From an uncultured bacterium (GTDB lineage Bacteria > Zixibacteria > MSB-5A5 > GN15 > FEB-12): a stretch of DNA of 64,000 nucleotides. Position 1 is the stretch's first letter. The number at the start of each line of letters is the position of its first letter. The notes below the pieces were generated by a model that searched no databases, was not told where the DNA came from, and worked only from the letters and a program-made list of their open reading frames with translations. Location of the stretch: the NCBI GenBank assembly GCA_965372795.1, contig CBDVDR010000016.1, positions 19,119 to 83,118 of the forward strand, given 5' to 3'. Positions 9,408 to 64,000 of the stretch are shown piece after piece. A program made the translations under genes and the position numbers.

Positions 9408-11414
9408 ATGGCTAAGTTTATGCTTCCTCGATTACTGCTAAGTTTAATTTTTGCTTCATTAACTATTTCAATCAATGCTCAAATACCACAAGTTATTAAT
9501 TATCAGGGTCAATTGACTGACATTGGAGGAACACCGGTAGCTGACGGACTATACCTTATCAAGTTCCGTCTTTATGATGATCCGACTGCCGGTACAACTT
9601 TGTGGGATTCTGACTTTCGAACAATTCAGGTTACCGATGGACTCTTTTCGTATATGTTGGGTGATACTGTTACTATCCCGGCTACGGTCTTTACCAATAA
9701 TTCCAATGTCTATCTTGGTATAAAAGTCAGTGCCGATCCTGAGTTATCACCGCGAAACAAGATCACATCGGTAGGATTTTCTTATCACTCTTTACTTGCC
9801 GATTCGGCTAAGGTCGCCGGAAATTCCAAGTTGTTGGATAATTTACCTTCATTGTATTATCTCGACTGGGGCAATCTAACCGGCATGCCAGCAGGTTTTG
9901 CTGACGGCATTGATAATGAAGGCAGTGGCGGTGGTGGTGATATTACAAGTGTGACCGCCGGATCCGGTTTGACAGGCGGAGGTATATCCGGCGATGTTTC
10001 ATTGTCAATAGGAGCCGGTGCGATTGCCAATGGTCATTTGGCGACTAATTCTGTTACAAGCGATAAAATTCTAAACCAAACCATAAACGGTAATGATATT
10101 GTAAACAATTCACTCGCAGGAACTCACTTAATAAACAATACAATAACTTTTAATAAAATGGGTTCAAATGGTGCCGCAGAAGGTGAAGTTATGAAAATGA
10201 TAGGTGGTAACTGGACAGCGGAGCCTGATGAAACCGGTAGTGGAGGTGACATTACTGCTGTCAACTCCGGTAGCGGTCTGATCGGTGGCGGGACATCGGG
10301 TGATGTAACCTTATCAGTTGGCACTGGTGCGATAACATCTGATCACATTGCCAACAATTCCGTTGGTACCGATAACATCCAAATCAACTCTGTAACAACG
10401 AACAAAATTGCCAACTATGCAATAACCCATGTGAAAATAGATGATGGTGCCGTGAACGGTTCAAAAATCGCAGCCAGCTCTATAGATCATAATCATATCG
10501 TTAACGGTGAGGTTAACTCTGATGAAATTGCTGCAGATGCCGTGACCAGTAGCAAGATACTCGATGGAGCCGTGACCAGCTCTAAAATTTATGATGGTAC
10601 CATTACATCAGTTGATATAGCCAGCGGTGGTGTTGCTATGTCTAACATCAATCAATCTGGCGCAACCGAGTCTCAGGCTATCACATGGAGTGAGAGTGAA
10701 GATGTCTGGCAGCCCTCTACTGTCGGTGATATAACATCAGTATACGGCACTGAATTAGGTGGATTGGTAGGTGGCGGCACTGAAGGTGATGTTGGTTTAA
10801 GTATTGAATATCAAGGAGTAAATTCCTATTACATTCAAGATAATACCATTGTTGATGAAGATATAAGTGCATCGGCTGATATTGAGCCAAGTAAAATAAG
10901 AGGTGGCGCTGTTAATCACACCGATGCTCAATTAATTGAGGGGGACAAAACATTCCTCAGTTTGAGTATTGGCACAACAACAAGAAAACTGGCAGTTCCA
11001 AGTGCTGCTTTTGTTCCCAGTAGGAATACTTATTCATTTTCAAGAAACAGCTCATATTTGAGGAATACTGTTTCTTCTAATCAAGTATTTGTAGCACCTG
11101 TATTTTTGCCAGATGGTGCAATTGTTACGAAGGTTAAAGTTACTTATTATGATAATGAAGCGTCTTACGATGGACATATCGATTTGGTCAAAGTTTATAT
11201 GTATGGTGGTGGTGAGATCTTAATGGCAAGTGAAGGAACATCCGGCACGCCGGGTTTTTCAACAGTTACAGATAATACGATTATCAGCGAAACAGTAAGT
11301 AATGATGGTTATAATTATTATTTGTCTGCAAGCATGACATACAGCAGTAACTCACTCAACATGAGACTCTATGGCGCCGAGATTGAATACACTATTACGA
11401 AACCGCTGCCATAA
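9408..11414 (+). CDS. Secreted repeat-rich fibre/adhesin-like protein
   Basis: Signal peptide, QIPQVINYQGQLTD N-domain, three GDITSV..G.GL.GGG..GDV.LS repeats, AVTSSKI-type 10-residue repeats. Confidence 0.7.
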   Translation: MAKFMLPRLLLSLIFASLTISINAQIPQVINYQGQLTDIGGTPVADGLYLIKFRLYDDPTAGTTLWDSDFRTIQVTDGLFSYMLGDTVTIPATVFTNNSNVYLGIKVSADPELSPRNKITSVGFSYHSLLADSAKVAGNSKLLDNLPSLYYLDWGNLTGMPAGFADGIDNEGSGGGGDITSVTAGSGLTGGGISGDVSLSIGAGAIANGHLATNSVTSDKILNQTINGNDIVNNSLAGTHLINNTITFNKMGSNGAAEGEVMKMIGGNWTAEPDETGSGGDITAVNSGSGLIGGGTSGDVTLSVGTGAITSDHIANNSVGTDNIQINSVTTNKIANYAITHVKIDDGAVNGSKIAASSIDHNHIVNGEVNSDEIAADAVTSSKILDGAVTSSKIYDGTITSVDIASGGVAMSNINQSGATESQAITWSESEDVWQPSTVGDITSVYGTELGGLVGGGTEGDVGLSIEYQGVNSYYIQDNTIVDEDISASADIEPSKIRGGAVNHTDAQLIEGDKTFLSLSIGTTTRKLAVPSAAFVPSRNTYSFSRNSSYLRNTVSSNQVFVAPVFLPDGAIVTKVKVTYYDNEASYDGHIDLVKVYMYGGGEILMASEGTSGTPGFSTVTDNTIISETVSNDGYNYYLSASMTYSSNSLNMRLYGAEIEYTITKPLP

Positions 11415-59913: not shown

Positions 59914-60711
59914 TTAACGTGTATCAGCAAGGCTAGTATTAGTGCTGATATGCTCATGACATCCATTACAAAAATCAAGCGGCTCTTCGAAATTAACCAA
60001 TAGATCGTCCTCTTCTGCTGACAGATTGTGACACGTCAGGCATTCAATGCGATTATCGAAGAGCTTAATCCTTGGATCAATTTCAAAACGGATACGATTC
60101 GTGCTATTTCCTTCCCCCGGAATTACATCAATTTCATAGGGATGGCTGGCATGGTTATTTATAACCGGCATGCTTGAATTATTTGAGGTCGAGGAATATG
60201 ATGAACCATGACAGAGCATACATCCTTGTGATAGAGACAGGCTCAAAATATTCTGAGAATTATTATGATAGAGAATTCTGGCATCACGGTGCCCTTCTGA
60301 TAGCAAGCTCAAGTTACTGGAAACACTGTGACAAGTATAACAGTGAATAGCACCTTGTTTGGATACTAAGTCATACTGGGTTTTAGTCTTCTCAATTATA
60401 AGATTATTAGAATTATGGAATGAGTGACAATCGGTGCATTGACGGGTTTTATCGTTGTGAAAGTTGTTATCGGAAATAAAGTTATCATCAAATAACTGAT
60501 TGTGACAGCTTATACACCTTTTATTTTCAAATTTCTTAATTTTACTCCCAAAAGAATGACAATTAGCACAAATAATATCTTCATGGGTGTGTTTTTCATT
60601 TCTATTTTCATCTGAATTAACTGAATCCACATAGAGACCAAACCAAAAGATACAGAGTACAAATATGAATACAATCCGTAAGGATCTCTTAAAAAGTAAA
60701 TTTTTTGCCAT
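59914..60711 (-). CDS. Multiheme cytochrome c, 7 CxxCH
   Basis: N-terminal TM/signal; 7 CxxCH counted. Confidence 0.88.
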   Translation of the reverse strand: MAKNLLFKRSLRIVFIFVLCIFWFGLYVDSVNSDENRNEKHTHEDIICANCHSFGSKIKKFENKRCISCHNQLFDDNFISDNNFHNDKTRQCTDCHSFHNSNNLIIEKTKTQYDLVSKQGAIHCYTCHSVSSNLSLLSEGHRDARILYHNNSQNILSLSLSQGCMLCHGSSYSSTSNNSSMPVINNHASHPYEIDVIPGEGNSTNRIRFEIDPRIKLFDNRIECLTCHNLSAEEDDLLVNFEEPLDFCNGCHEHISTNTSLADTR

Positions 60712-62549: not shown

Positions 62550-64000
62550 CTATTTCATACCAAAATTTGTCTTGGAATTAATGCTATTCTGATTTGCCAG
62601 CTTGGTAACCAGAGTTTTCAATTCTGTAATTTCAGTCTGCATTGATTTAATTGTAGTTTGTTGTTCTTTTGAGGCTTCGATCAACAAAGCTACCAGTCGT
62701 GAATAATCGACAGACTTGGCATCAATGCCATTTTCCTCATAGGTAACAATCTCAGGAATTACTTCGCCGACTTCCTCGGCAATCAAACCAATATCATGTT
62801 TCCCGTCGGCTTTCCAGTCATATTCGACACCGCGTAATTGTTGAACTTTATCTAAAGCGTTATTAATAGTGTTAATATTTTCCTTCCACCGGCGTGAACT
62901 ATACAACGTCCAGGCATCCGCAATAGGATCAGTAAATGAACCTTGGACTACCTGTAGGATGGAGGTTGGATTGGTTAAACCAATTCCGACATTACCATCA
63001 ACTGACAGATCCATCGTTCCATCGGCACCGGCATCACCTATGACGACACTGCTTGGCAACATTCCCGTACCAACGTTACTTGTCGTAACTCTTATATTTC
63101 CACCGTTGCCCCCATAACTTCCACCGCCGCCTCTTTGAATGACGACTGATGAATCACTCAGCGAATCAACTATTGAAACAACACCGGGAGTAATAGAAGT
63201 CTTGGTACTGGCTCCAACTGTTCGTCCACCTTCACGAATTGCCCTCGCAATTTCCATTCGATCCGGATTGAGGGTGAATTCATATCTCTCTGTCGAACCA
63301 TCGCCGGTATCCTGATCTTCTGTCATTAACAATAAAGGAGTTCCGTTTTCAATACTCAAACCAATCAAACCACTATCGTTTAAAGTTGAATCTATTAATA
63401 TTAAACTAACCGATGAACTGGTACTTAAAGCTTCCAGTGCCCGCTTGGCATCCGCCTTGCTTAAACATCGAAACAAGGCACTATCACCGCTAACCCTCAT
63501 ATCGAGCAACCCGTCATCATCCGTGTCTTCATCAAGCCTTCTCAAAGTAAAACTACCGCCGGTAGTGTCATTCAAAACGATATCAGCCGACAACTGAATA
63601 GTTGCTCCGGTCTGCGGATTACGACCGGTACGTGCTGCTCGACGACTAATGCTTGCCGTTCCTACACGATCCTCAATATTGGATGCTATGGCATCAATAA
63701 GTTCAGCTTTATTCATATAAAGAGCAGTACCAGTTGCGTCATTTTGAACCGAAAAAGCAGAATCACCTACCTCAATTCTGGCAAAATCAGGATCGCCAAA
63801 AAGACCAACCATGGTCGTTGTATCCAAGCCACCATTAGAGATTTTCAAAACAGTAACATGACCTTCATTGTCGACAAAATTTACAGCATTTGATACAACA
63901 ATATCACCACCAGGTGAGCTGCCACTACCATCACCTAAATCCATCCTGGCAAAATCAGGATCGCCAAAAAGACCAACCATGGTCGTTGTATCCAAGCCAC
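62550..64000 (-). CDS. Large fibre-like protein with C-terminal S74 intramolecular-chaperone domain (5' truncated by the window), containing HU- and EF-Tu-like peptides
   Basis: GNVGIG..P, SSRRWKENI, IGLIAEEV, VDYSRLVALLIEA plus coiled coil; frame open to the window edge. Confidence 0.8.
   Translation of the reverse strand, partial: GLDTTTMVGLFGDPDFARMDLGDGSGSSPGGDIVVSNAVNFVDNEGHVTVLKISNGGLDTTTMVGLFGDPDFARIEVGDSAFSVQNDATGTALYMNKAELIDAIASNIEDRVGTASISRRAARTGRNPQTGATIQLSADIVLNDTTGGSFTLRRLDEDTDDDGLLDMRVSGDSALFRCLSKADAKRALEALSTSSSVSLILIDSTLNDSGLIGLSIENGTPLLLMTEDQDTGDGSTERYEFTLNPDRMEIARAIREGGRTVGASTKTSITPGVVSIVDSLSDSSVVIQRGGGGSYGGNGGNIRVTTSNVGTGMLPSSVVIGDAGADGTMDLSVDGNVGIGLTNPTSILQVVQGSFTDPIADAWTLYSSRRWKENINTINNALDKVQQLRGVEYDWKADGKHDIGLIAEEVGEVIPEIVTYEENGIDAKSVDYSRLVALLIEASKEQQTTIKSMQTEITELKTLVTKLANQNSINSKTNFGMK

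Follow-up and report, generated by a model that had tools for sequence, protein, structure and literature searches.

The window (the whole stretch of 64,000 nucleotides analysed here) runs out inside a gene whose product, a secreted fibre, carries an S74 chaperone with its Ser-Lys dyad as well as pieces of HU and EF-Tu. Judged by sequence comparison, these pieces match their parents in protein only, are old and are maintained by purifying selection. Their most likely origin is descent from an exported double-HU protein, as opposed to pasting by an unfamiliar mechanism. With about even confidence, we take the fibre to contain a conserved stalk cassette derived from an exported tandem HU, with the origin and function proposed below.

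The fibre gene and its S74 chaperone

All four peptides reported in an earlier note on this DNA were recovered in a single minus-strand frame (62550..>64000, 482 codons, still open where the contig ends): the HU helix-1 word (residues 95-105, 63684-63716), the HU arm word (residues 120-135, 63594-63641), the HU helix-2 word (residues 179-190, 63429-63464) and the EF-Tu word (residues 253-263, 63210-63242). The same note's placing of the pieces in an S74-chaperone fibre, with unrelated stretches between them, was also borne out, the fibre being a secreted one. The features are as follows:

62550..64000, minus strand: C-terminal part of the fibre gene (482 codons and stop; the frame exits the end of contig C16)
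G000:C14:2-1063, minus strand: N-terminal part of the fibre gene, on a separate contig (354 codons including the signal peptide)
63762..64000, minus strand: tandemly repeated unit of ~168 nt (56 aa) with the words GHVTVLK and FGDPDF (one partial and one full copy)
63357..63746, minus strand: core block, residues 85-214, read as a degenerate tandem-HU cassette (kept in four genomes; 58 invariant columns)
63678..63716, minus strand: HU unit 1 helix 1, residues 95-107 (HU 1-13; HU HMM 7.0 bits, top of 300 shuffles 3.4)
63555..63662, minus strand: HU unit 1 strand 2, DNA-binding arm and degenerate strand 3, residues 113-148 (HU 48-83; HU HMM 37.0 bits)
63501..63539, minus strand: acidic Asp-rich motif, residues 154-166 (look-alike of the bacterial TSP3-type calcium motif)
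63414..63464, minus strand: HU unit 2 helix 2, residues 179-195 (HU 16-32; 11/11 identical to P0135 residues 16-26)
63192..63284, minus strand: EF-Tu domain-3 tail module, residues 239-269 (HMM match of 252-269 to EF-Tu 376-393)
62901..63152, minus strand: Gly-rich and FG-GAP-like stretch, residues 283-366 (upstream of the predicted cleavage site, as in other S74 fibres)
62550..62900, minus strand: Peptidase_S74 intramolecular chaperone, residues 367-482 (Pfam and the relatives' alignment)

The N-terminal part on C14 starts with a hydrophobic leader (the signal peptide was assigned by eye, without a predictor) and ends in the repeat found in the window frame. Within the frame, gene nt 1-55 equal nt 167-221, and a further copy lies at the start of C14 (C14:1-99, 94 % identical); this 168-nt repeat probably explains why the assembly breaks between C14 and C16 (the genome assembly comprises 69 contigs and is 98.65 % complete). 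On the strength of the shared repeat and of the relatives' architecture, the two halves were joined into what appears to be one gene of at least ~800 residues. The fibre is strongly acidic overall, as are related fibres (pI 4.2-4.9, net charge -26 to -59). A 924-residue ORF on C18 has the words FGDPDF and DSFFD in common with the fibre (7-mer matches), and a weak relative was seen in genome G279 (36 % over query 8-82, within a 140-residue frame).

The chaperone was matched by Peptidase_S74 (PF13884) at residues 367-418 (E 1e-15, 58.2 bits, cut-off 22), and the fibre was the sole S74 match in a genome-wide search (1.6e-16). Ser367 and Lys372 are invariant in 9/9 aligned sequences. According to the part of PMC8326128 available, the Ser-Lys dyads of endoNF (S911/K916) and MyRF (S587/K592) have a five-residue spacing; that of Ser367/Lys372 is the same, and self-cleavage is predicted between Tyr366 and Ser367. 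The presence of the S74 domain suggests that the fibre forms a homotrimer; a complex prediction with three copies of the 130-residue block gave no answer (score 0.00). Upstream of the cleavage site, FG-GAP_3 matched weakly (residues 297-331, E 1.9), and the Gly-rich run is of low complexity and quotes no housekeeping protein. Tail-fibre matches among the PHROGs were confined to the S74 end (from about residue 320), and the C14 part matched no PHROG.

HU and EF-Tu pieces and their conservation

The earlier note's claim of HU and EF-Tu likeness stands far above chance. For the DNA-binding arm, Bac_DNA_binding (PF00216) matched residues 112-139 against profile positions 47-74 of 90 with 27.2 bits (Pfam cut-off 22.4), and hhalign of the block with six same-phylum HUs gave 98.6 % (E 5e-16, 30 columns). 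The arm covers HU positions 47-76 and is identical at 18/30 positions to the genome's own hup product (contig C29) and at 16/16 to the arm of a same-phylum HU (L008). Arm residues R55, R58, R61, N62 and P63 (phylum HU numbering) are invariant in 6 HUs and 4 fibre blocks. Helix 1 is 12/12 identical to residues 1-12 of P0135; helix 2 and strand 1 of unit 1 are deleted. The helix-2 word of unit 2 is weak with the HU HMM (1.8 bits, within the shuffle range, top 3.4) and is supported by exact or near-exact matches to HU chimeras. In relatives, unit 2 runs on to a strand 3 and helix 3 word, which the window protein lacks. A third HU remnant in the C14 part comprises the end of helix 2 and strand 1 (HU 31-49, HU HMM; top shuffle 3.4 bits).

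A complete HU fold of ~90 residues in native order is absent, profile 47-74 being the one continuous Pfam match; the remaining HU positions form separate islands from two or three units (HU HMM). Pattern searches of the genomes and viral contigs, together with the block alignment, returned 79 + 80 loci, mostly ordinary hup genes. The lists were swamped by hup because the chosen patterns were HU words, and were kept only as a biased HU source; the HU HMM consensus is biased towards the fibre words, since its source loci were retrieved with fibre-derived patterns. AlphaFold2 models had low confidence (482-residue window part as monomer, 9-row alignment, pLDDT 41; 163-residue G239 block, 4 rows, pLDDT 34), with helices at both HU helix words and strands elsewhere, and the ESM Atlas gave no usable match. 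A TSP3_bac match to the acidic motif was obtained in P0142, under the cut-off (E 0.038), and this motif quotes no housekeeping protein.

The EF-Tu 11-mer (residues 253-263) is identical at 11/11 positions to the products of both tuf copies (contig C15). Between the fibre and all six-frame ORFs, 5.3e-5 shared exact 11-mers are expected by chance; of 300 shuffles, 13 had a longest exact match of 6 residues, 222 of 7, 61 of 8 and 4 of at least 9. The EF-Tu HMM match spans 18 residues and is weak on the window (6.8 bits; 1/360 shuffled sequences reached 7.1), and EF-Tu domain 3 (PF03143) was not matched in the window protein even with E values of up to 10 admitted. The module is the last 18-30 residues of domain 3, its edge at residue 239 having been set by eye against the tuf translation. 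In the relative P0003, PF03143 matched only at profile 90-105 of 106 (E 0.18), and two EF-Tu pieces stand in an order opposite to that of EF-Tu, with domain 3 (301-316) ahead of domain 2 (334-347); this order resembles cut-and-paste and not the decay of a single domain. The domain-2-like word of P0003 had also been considered as an HU helix 2-strand 1 junction, a reading dropped on its 13/13 identity to EF-Tu 265-277 (EF-Tu HMM and consensus). We take E390 to fall within the EF-Tu word kept in the fibre, and T382 to be the threonine inside it. In the available parts of the respective papers, the Thermus EF-Tu residue numbered E390 touches the tRNA T stem (PMC3239215), and EF-Tu T382 is the phosphorylation site of the toxin Doc (PMC5851678).

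Three other genomes, among them members of a different genus and a different family, carry the block of ~130 residues; in these independent assemblies it lies on contigs of 120, 47 and 20 kb. Among the four genomes, amino acid identity was 0.73, 0.87 and 0.89 for the HU words, 1.0 for one scaffold word and 0.34 for the spacers, and codon identity among identical residues was 0.40-0.52 throughout. With the HU words at 73-89% against spacers at 34%, and synonymous divergence equal, the pieces are best read as old and under purifying selection. The gene neighbourhoods of the block are not alike among the four genomes. P0121 shares 72-78 % of the block, yet has a different S74 subtype, which may reflect cassette exchange between fibre genes.

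Proposed origin and function of the cassette

The earlier note had described the HU pieces as permuted. From helix 1 through the arm and the acidic motif to helix 2 (and, in relatives, on to strand 3 with helix 3), they are collinear with exported tandem-HU proteins, which favours a pair of degenerate HU units over a single shuffled one. The tandem-HU plan consists, in one chain, of a signal-peptide-like N-terminus, HU1, an insert, the acidic motif and HU2, with the acidic motif immediately before HU unit 2; of this plan the fibre retains, from HU1, helix 1 and the arm, then the acidic motif and, from HU2, helix 2. Residues 87-138 of the fibre can be aligned with residues 19-95 of P0137 as an HU lacking helix 2 and strand 1 (E 1.5e-19), P0121 494-584 align to P0150 253-346 as the acidic motif and an armless HU2 (E 6.6e-11), and the same unit of helix 1, arm and acidic motif occurs in P0127 (E 2.4e-21). 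Both P0127 (pI 10.1) and P0137 (pI 9.7) are basic. The comparison with the chimeras gave 355 HSPs, compared with 44 for shuffled queries (best E 0.014). The helix words in the fibre are of chimera type, not host-HU type, and the HU chimeras match PF18291 and PF18175. Of 14 HU-family representatives, 5 were examined. A chimera gene is missing from this genome, in which a tblastn search with the fibre matched only hup, an IHF-like gene and tuf. With both HU units incomplete and embedded in a fibre, the protein looks like a derivative of an exported tandem HU, and not a member of that group. The EF-Tu module is not explained by a tandem-HU origin, save via chimeras that hold EF-Tu domain 2 (in P0242 at 33.6 bits, above the cut-off); the domain-3 word was present in none of the chimeras examined.

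For the origin, it is proposed that a fibre gene of a Calditrichota-type lineage recombined with an exported tandem-HU-type gene, and that internal deletions, module duplications and cassette exchange among fibre genes followed; dedicated insertion machinery would be unnecessary. The direction of transfer is assumed to be from chimera to fibre. The proposed function is more tentative. After export and trimerisation, the S74 domain would excise itself at Tyr366/Ser367, and the mature shaft would carry three basic HU arms beside acidic, probably calcium-binding loops. The arm region would most likely bind a polyanion (extracellular DNA/RNA, acidic polysaccharide, LPS) or clasp the adjoining acidic loop, since the surviving islands include the parts of the parent that touch nucleic-acid backbones. 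The acidity of the fibre, in which the arm is only a +4 island, counts against general DNA binding.

Other accounts of the pieces were weighed against descent from an exported tandem HU. They may be architectural relics only, that is, self-folding hairpins and amphipathic helices of a trimeric shaft with no external ligand, the basic arm pairing with the neighbouring acidic loop within or between chains. This account, which we consider doubtful though worth keeping in play, agrees with the hairpin or helix size of the pieces, with the acidity of the fibre, with the constant adjacency of arm and acidic motif (5/5 arm-bearing fibres and P0127), with scaffold words as conserved as the HU words or more (e.g. 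the invariant 11-mer 202-212) and with the helices that AlphaFold placed, at low confidence, on the two HU helix words among strands. Hairpins usually drift, however, and it is precisely the DNA-contacting arm residues that are invariant; the helix 1 and arm unit is also found in small basic secreted proteins that are not fibres (P0127). It is unlikely that fibre and chimeras form an undescribed class of exported scaffolds displaying linear signature peptides of abundant conserved proteins, kept near consensus by recognition (mimicry, decoy, pseudo-substrate) and not by the parent fold; HU, EF-Tu domains 1-3, the eCIS core motif and the tail-tube protein would be among those displayed, joined in some chimeras by stretches resembling kinase loops and integrin tails. 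Peptide display as such, for example to a grazer, host, toxin or protease, is judged distinctly unlikely. The pieces (11-36 residues) are indeed near consensus, the EF-Tu pieces of P0003 are reversed, and the EF-Tu word would hold T382. Chimeras also match the eCIS_core tail (E 0.003-0.09, 6 proteins), EF-Tu domain 2 and Phage_T4_gp19 (E 7e-4), and contain a stretch like a tyrosine-kinase P+1-loop (E 0.07) and NPLY repeats like an integrin-beta-tail (E 0.12-0.36). Most of these extra matches lie under the family cut-offs, however, and were partly found by eye; we know of no recogniser of such displayed peptides. HU and EF-Tu are cytoplasmic whereas the fibre leaves the cell, P0005 and P0008 show the module in decay, and tandem-HU descent is the simpler account of the HU pieces.

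The earlier note had favoured an active process (RNA-templated diversification or a memory array) that keeps inserting fragments of highly expressed genes, as a DGR-like or CRISPR-like system would. In favour of this, the source genes are highly expressed and the pieces both short and in frame, but an active mechanism is largely refuted, and we consider it very improbable. DNA-level identity to hup and tuf is not in excess: third codon positions agree at 4/11 (tuf) and 9/18 (hup), and recent capture is not supported. No reverse transcriptase (RVT_1, PF00078) was matched across the 98.65 %-complete genome, and no RT, recombinase or phage genes were present in the 14 kb that lie upstream on C14, nor immediately downstream of the gene. 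A second copy of the block that might act as template repeat was not detected (blastn-short), TRF returned no rows, and the 168-nt coding repeat is the sole internal DNA repeat, leaving no repeat-spacer structure (TRF, blastn); the scaffold words are not alike one another in translation. Diversification is further contradicted by identical words at identical places in another genus and another family, with the same block kept under purifying selection in all three other genomes, and by helix words of chimera and not host-HU type. Least probable of all is an assembly chimera or chance likeness: a contig end interrupts the gene in a 69-contig genome, but all HU and EF-Tu words of the window share a single contig with 62 kb of unremarkable sequence, the same block recurs in independent assemblies, and the chance expectation is 5e-5.

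Comparison with known systems

The proposed descent from an exported tandem HU turns an apparently mysterious insertion into a testable path, from an exported double HU to a cassette in a self-cleaving, trimeric surface fibre. This path does not cover a small, odd remainder (the short reversed EF-Tu pieces and the signature motifs of unrelated families in exported proteins). The fibre and the exported tandem-HU proteins and chimeras (P0137, P0150, P0128, P0127 and the P0242 group) have at least 10 words in common, ordered alike from helix 1 by way of the arm, the acidic motif and helix 2 to strand 3 with helix 3, and also share GHVTVLK, DSFFD, DDDCDG, HPPG and GDxPT. The chimeras (200-460 residues), several of them basic, lack S74 and keep HU domains that are for the most part intact, whereas the HU units of the fibre are incomplete. 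No description of these proteins was found in the literature searched; this scarcely described group could show how bacteria and archaea put DNA-binding modules outside the cell, and bears on extracellular DNA in biofilms and sediments.

HU and IHF (DNABII, PF00216) share with the fibre an arm with all invariant arm residues. HU is also found outside cells, including in biofilm matrices, with roles involving eDNA and LPS (available sections of PMC6011942, PMC11580401 and PMC9445418). Unlike HU and IHF, the fibre has split and partly deleted units in an acidic context, and the geometry of the HU dimer cannot simply hold in a trimer. The HU-HIG and HU-CCDC81 clades are likewise non-canonical, fast-evolving HU derivatives fused to other modules, but the available portion of Burroughs et al. 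2017 (PMC5499826) puts their HU parts inside the cell, and in it 'secreted' and 'tail fiber' each have 0 occurrences.

S74 phage fibres and tailspikes, such as endoNF and the T5 L-shaped fibre, have a C-terminal S74 domain, the Ser-Lys pair and a variable stalk in common with the fibre (PMC8326128, in part). The fibre differs from them in being chromosomal, with no phage genes around it, in having a signal peptide and a conserved non-phage head domain, and in a stalk that consists partly of HU and EF-Tu relics and is matched by no PHROG family. A similar module order is that of MYRF/MrfA, eukaryotic membrane-bound transcription factors in which, according to the portions available of PMC8326128, PMC3742440 and PMC3828593, a DNA-binding module precedes a beta-helical stalk and an S74-type autocleaving trimeriser; in the fibre, too, the part derived from a DNA-binding protein lies upstream of S74. 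MYRF has an intact Ndt80-type DNA-binding domain and sits in the ER membrane, whereas the fibre retains islands only, is exported, and its binding is putative. With this difference, the fibre is a bacterial parallel to MYRF's combination of a DNA-binding module with an S74 autocleaving trimeriser.

The fibre gene and the matches within it

The fibre frame encodes an S74-chaperone protein that is probably secreted, and its features in the window are as follows:

62550 to the window end, minus strand: fibre frame, window part, 482 codons, stop at 62550
63684-63716, minus strand: HU helix 1 word
63594-63641, minus strand: HU arm word
63429-63464, minus strand: HU helix 2 word
63357-63746, minus strand: block of residues 85-214
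63210-63242, minus strand: EF-Tu word

The four peptides reported in the earlier note were all recovered in this one frame. In the window part, Pfam placed Peptidase_S74 at residues 367-418 (E 1e-15) and Bac_DNA_binding at residues 112-139 (profile positions 47-74 of 90; 27.2 bits, cut-off 22.4). Compared as profiles, the block and six HU proteins of the same phylum gave 98.6 % (E 5e-16, 30 columns). Between the window part and the six-frame ORFs of the genome, 13 exact 7-mers were shared (shuffle mean 3.1, maximum 9): 10 in tuf copies, 2 in hup and 1, at chance level, in a 73-residue ORF. The EF-Tu word is identical to host EF-Tu (11/11), and with 5.3e-5 shared exact 11-mers expected by chance this match withstood the comparison with shuffled sequences; the longest match in 300 shuffles was 6 residues in 13 cases, 7 in 222, 8 in 61 and at least 9 in 4. 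With the EF-Tu HMM, the window part scored 6.8 bits, below the top score of 7.1 among 360 shuffles. The HU and EF-Tu pieces in the fibre are real.

The window end is the end of contig C16. The start of contig C14 repeats the first 99 bases of the frame at 94 % identity, and there the open frame extends a further 354 codons upstream, reaching an ATG with a hydrophobic leader behind it that by eye looks like a signal peptide. Because a coding tandem repeat of ~168 nt lies at both contig ends (gene nt 1-55 equal nt 167-221), the genome has no Peptidase_S74 locus besides the fibre gene, and full-length relatives (623-846 residues) run from head domain through repeats and block to S74, we infer that the two pieces probably form one gene of at least ~800 codons, split by the repeat. 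The database holds a 420-residue version, encoded on a 731,993-base contig, whose sequence is identical to the window's product.

A 668-residue paralogue (window 9408-11414, plus strand) has the fibre's N-terminal head domain (39 % over 124 residues) and no S74 domain, HU words or Pfam match; two more head-domain paralogues lie on contigs C6 and C2. On the minus strand of contig C18, a 924-residue, secreted-looking frame has three repeats in its interior and dockerin-like ones at its C-terminus; it has the words FGDPDF and DSFFD in common with the fibres, and three exact 7-mers with the fibre P0002.

Origin and conservation of the HU pieces

A search seeded with P0128 returned proteins of 200-460 residues (P0137, P0138, P0139, P0141, P0142, P0150, P0135; source label of P0139, Halobacteriovorax MAG), here called HU chimeras. 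In these, an HU start directly follows a signal-peptide-like N-terminus; an insert comes next, and an Asp-rich motif then leads into a second HU unit. Short-query BLAST of ten fibres against ten chimeras gave 355 HSPs, and shuffled queries gave 44 (best E 0.014). Window residues 87-138 matched P0137 19-95 (E 1.5e-19), an HU unit without helix 2 and strand 1; residues 494-584 of the fibre P0121 matched P0150 253-346 (E 6.6e-11), an acidic motif with an HU unit lacking the arm; and the small secreted protein P0127 has the unit of helix 1, arm and acidic motif as in the fibre (E 2.4e-21).

The HU HMM, built from loci found by fibre-derived patterns and so biased for the words themselves, located three islands in the window part (HU 1-13, 48-83 and 16-32), one in the C14 part (31-49), and HU 6-90 within one 78-residue stretch of the fibre P0003; the helix-2 word scored only 1.8 bits (top of 300 shuffles, 3.4). 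In all five arm-bearing fibres the words run helix 1, arm, acidic motif, (helix 1), helix 2, (strand 3 and helix 3). This order matches the tandem-HU layout and thus indicates, at the level of sequence, a pair of HU units, both degenerate, rather than a single unit that was shuffled. The islands are incomplete, but the description of them as permuted is not supported, their order being that of exported tandem-HU proteins. The fibre arm is identical (16/16) to the HU arm of a same-phylum locus, L008; the helix words match the chimera type and differ from the phylum's own HU.

The word GHVTVLK occurs in four tandem copies, 12-13 residues apart, inside the insert of the chimeras P0138, P0139 and P0141, and also heads the fibre's 56-residue repeat; in Pfam the only lead on it is a weak match, in P0002, to the HET-S N-terminal family (E 0.005).

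In a word-indexed search, the S74 end was common to 1157 proteins, and PF00216 was present in only 4 of the 120 listed. Stalk residues 70-300 were searched exhaustively against 1.84 billion representatives (E up to 1e-3), giving 20 matches: five fibres (P0001, P0121, P0002, P0004, P0005), P0127 and 14 HU-family proteins, five of which were inspected individually. Some match was obtained in 124/285 same-phylum genomes and the block proper in four (G000, the genome studied here, G239, G128 and G127); in nearly all the others the genome's own HU aligned to query residues 43-88 only, with one weak row in G279. P0004 is the G127 frame, and G127 and G000 belong to one family.

Across these four genomes, 58 columns of the ~130-residue block are invariant. 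Pairwise amino-acid identity is 0.73 for helix 1, 0.87 for the arm, 0.89 for helix 2, 0.71 for the arm-distal strand with the acidic motif and 1.0 for a scaffold word of 11 residues, whereas columns outside these words reach 0.34; where residues agree, the codon agrees as well in 0.40-0.52 of cases, equally across words and the rest of the block. High word identity with a uniform codon share therefore points to purifying selection on the protein, not recent DNA exchange, and the alignment ran counter to the idea of snippets that vary between relatives. P0121, from G239 of another family, has 72-78 % of the block in common with the others and a visibly different S74 subtype, which argues that the block was transferred between fibre genes. 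Upstream of the G239 fibre, locus L017 (G239:C208, 87-9344) encodes three head-domain proteins of 732, 818 and 442 residues, one of which is rich in His and Ser, together with two secreted, dockerin-like proteins; HU words were found in none of these.

Recent capture from hup or tuf was contradicted by the DNA: the EF-Tu word and tuf are alike at 26/33 bases and only 4/11 third positions, and the arm and hup at 50/90 bases, with 9/18 third positions among identical residues. No second copy of the fibre's HU/EF-Tu DNA was found in the genome by blastn-short, and the reverse transcriptase sought beyond the window did not appear, RVT_1 having no match anywhere in the genome (98.65 % complete). 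An ongoing insertion or diversification process is likewise unsupported, the same words being kept by purifying selection in four genomes; neither recent capture nor insertion machinery is supported. The gene's neighbours are two Ser/Thr kinases with PD40 repeats, DinB-family proteins, a DEAD helicase, a methyltransferase, a hybrid histidine kinase, a multihaem cytochrome and EthD, and the neighbourhoods in the three other genomes are not the same. The multihaem c-type cytochrome (window 59914-60711, minus strand; Cytochrom_c3_2, paired CXXCH) lies ~2 kb downstream of the fibre gene and is followed by DinB and EthD genes. Two tuf copies lie on one contig (C15:2-574, cut by the contig start, and C15:15259-16491), with identical DNA in the compared C-terminal part.

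The EF-Tu module and motifs of other families

The window's EF-Tu module corresponds to EF-Tu positions 376-393 by HMM and, by eye against the host tuf translation, runs ~13 residues further upstream with small gaps. It is also present in the fibres P0003 (11.0 bits), P0006 (9.9) and P0007 (5.5), and decayed in P0005 and P0008. In P0003, a further word of 13 residues equals positions 265-277 of a consensus built from 90 EF-Tu sequences; it sits after the domain-3 word, reversed with respect to EF-Tu, and directly adjoins the HU arm. A second chimera group (P0242 and ~15 relatives) carries EF-Tu domain 2 between HU units (for P0242, 33.6 bits, cut-off 30.3; 40.4 bits with our own EF-Tu HMM), which therefore indicates that HU and EF-Tu material occurs together in exported proteins other than fibres. 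The EF-Tu domain-3 word was not found in the chimeras examined.

Sub-threshold short matches to unrelated families were seen among the chimeras P0137, P0142, P0242, P0251, P0253, P0258, P0127, P0254 and P0255: the last 13-24 positions of eCIS_core (E 0.003-0.09), Phage_T4_gp19 (E 7e-4), a tyrosine-kinase P+1-loop-like stretch (PF07714 165-181, E 0.07), integrin-beta-tail-like NPLY repeats (E 0.12-0.36), Dockerin_1, TSP3_bac and MopE, and an EF-Tu switch-I-like word noted by eye (10.9 bits with our own EF-Tu HMM). These signature motifs, together with the reversed EF-Tu pieces in P0003, for which a tandem-HU origin does not account, carry the case for something new.

Candidate roles and known analogues

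Ser367 and Lys372 of the S74 domain are invariant in the aligned relatives, and their spacing equals that of the Ser-Lys dyad of endoNF and MyRF. In those proteins, as described in the accessible part of PMC8326128, the S74-type domain trimerises the upstream stalk and then self-cleaves; by analogy, the fibre's domain would trimerise the stalk and then cut itself off.

For the islands themselves, polyanion binding is a candidate role. In EF-Tu, a residue near the C-terminus makes contact with the T stem of tRNA (accessible part of PMC3239215). Every HU-invariant arm residue is retained in the fibre, and two small relatives, P0127 and P0137, are basic proteins. The T-stem-contacting residue presumably sits inside the retained EF-Tu word. 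The fibres, however, are strongly acidic (pI 4.2-4.9), which counts against polyanion binding, and the arm is a +4 island beside a -5 acidic stretch; an internal clasp, with the basic arm paired to the neighbouring acidic loop, fits equally well. AlphaFold gave no confident model of the fibre sequence.

From its sequence, then, the protein reads as a surface fibre of the S74 kind that carries an EF-Tu tail and a cassette descended from exported tandem-HU proteins. Literature searches on S74/intramolecular chaperones with HU/DNABII and on the HU-HIG/CCDC81 clades turned up no account of S74 fibres that contain HU material; the accessible part of PMC5499826, on these clades, mentions neither "secreted" nor "tail fiber" and places the HU parts it discusses inside the cell. 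The closest design analogue is MYRF, in which a beta-helical stalk lies between a DNA-binding domain and a domain of the S74 type (accessible part of PMC8326128).
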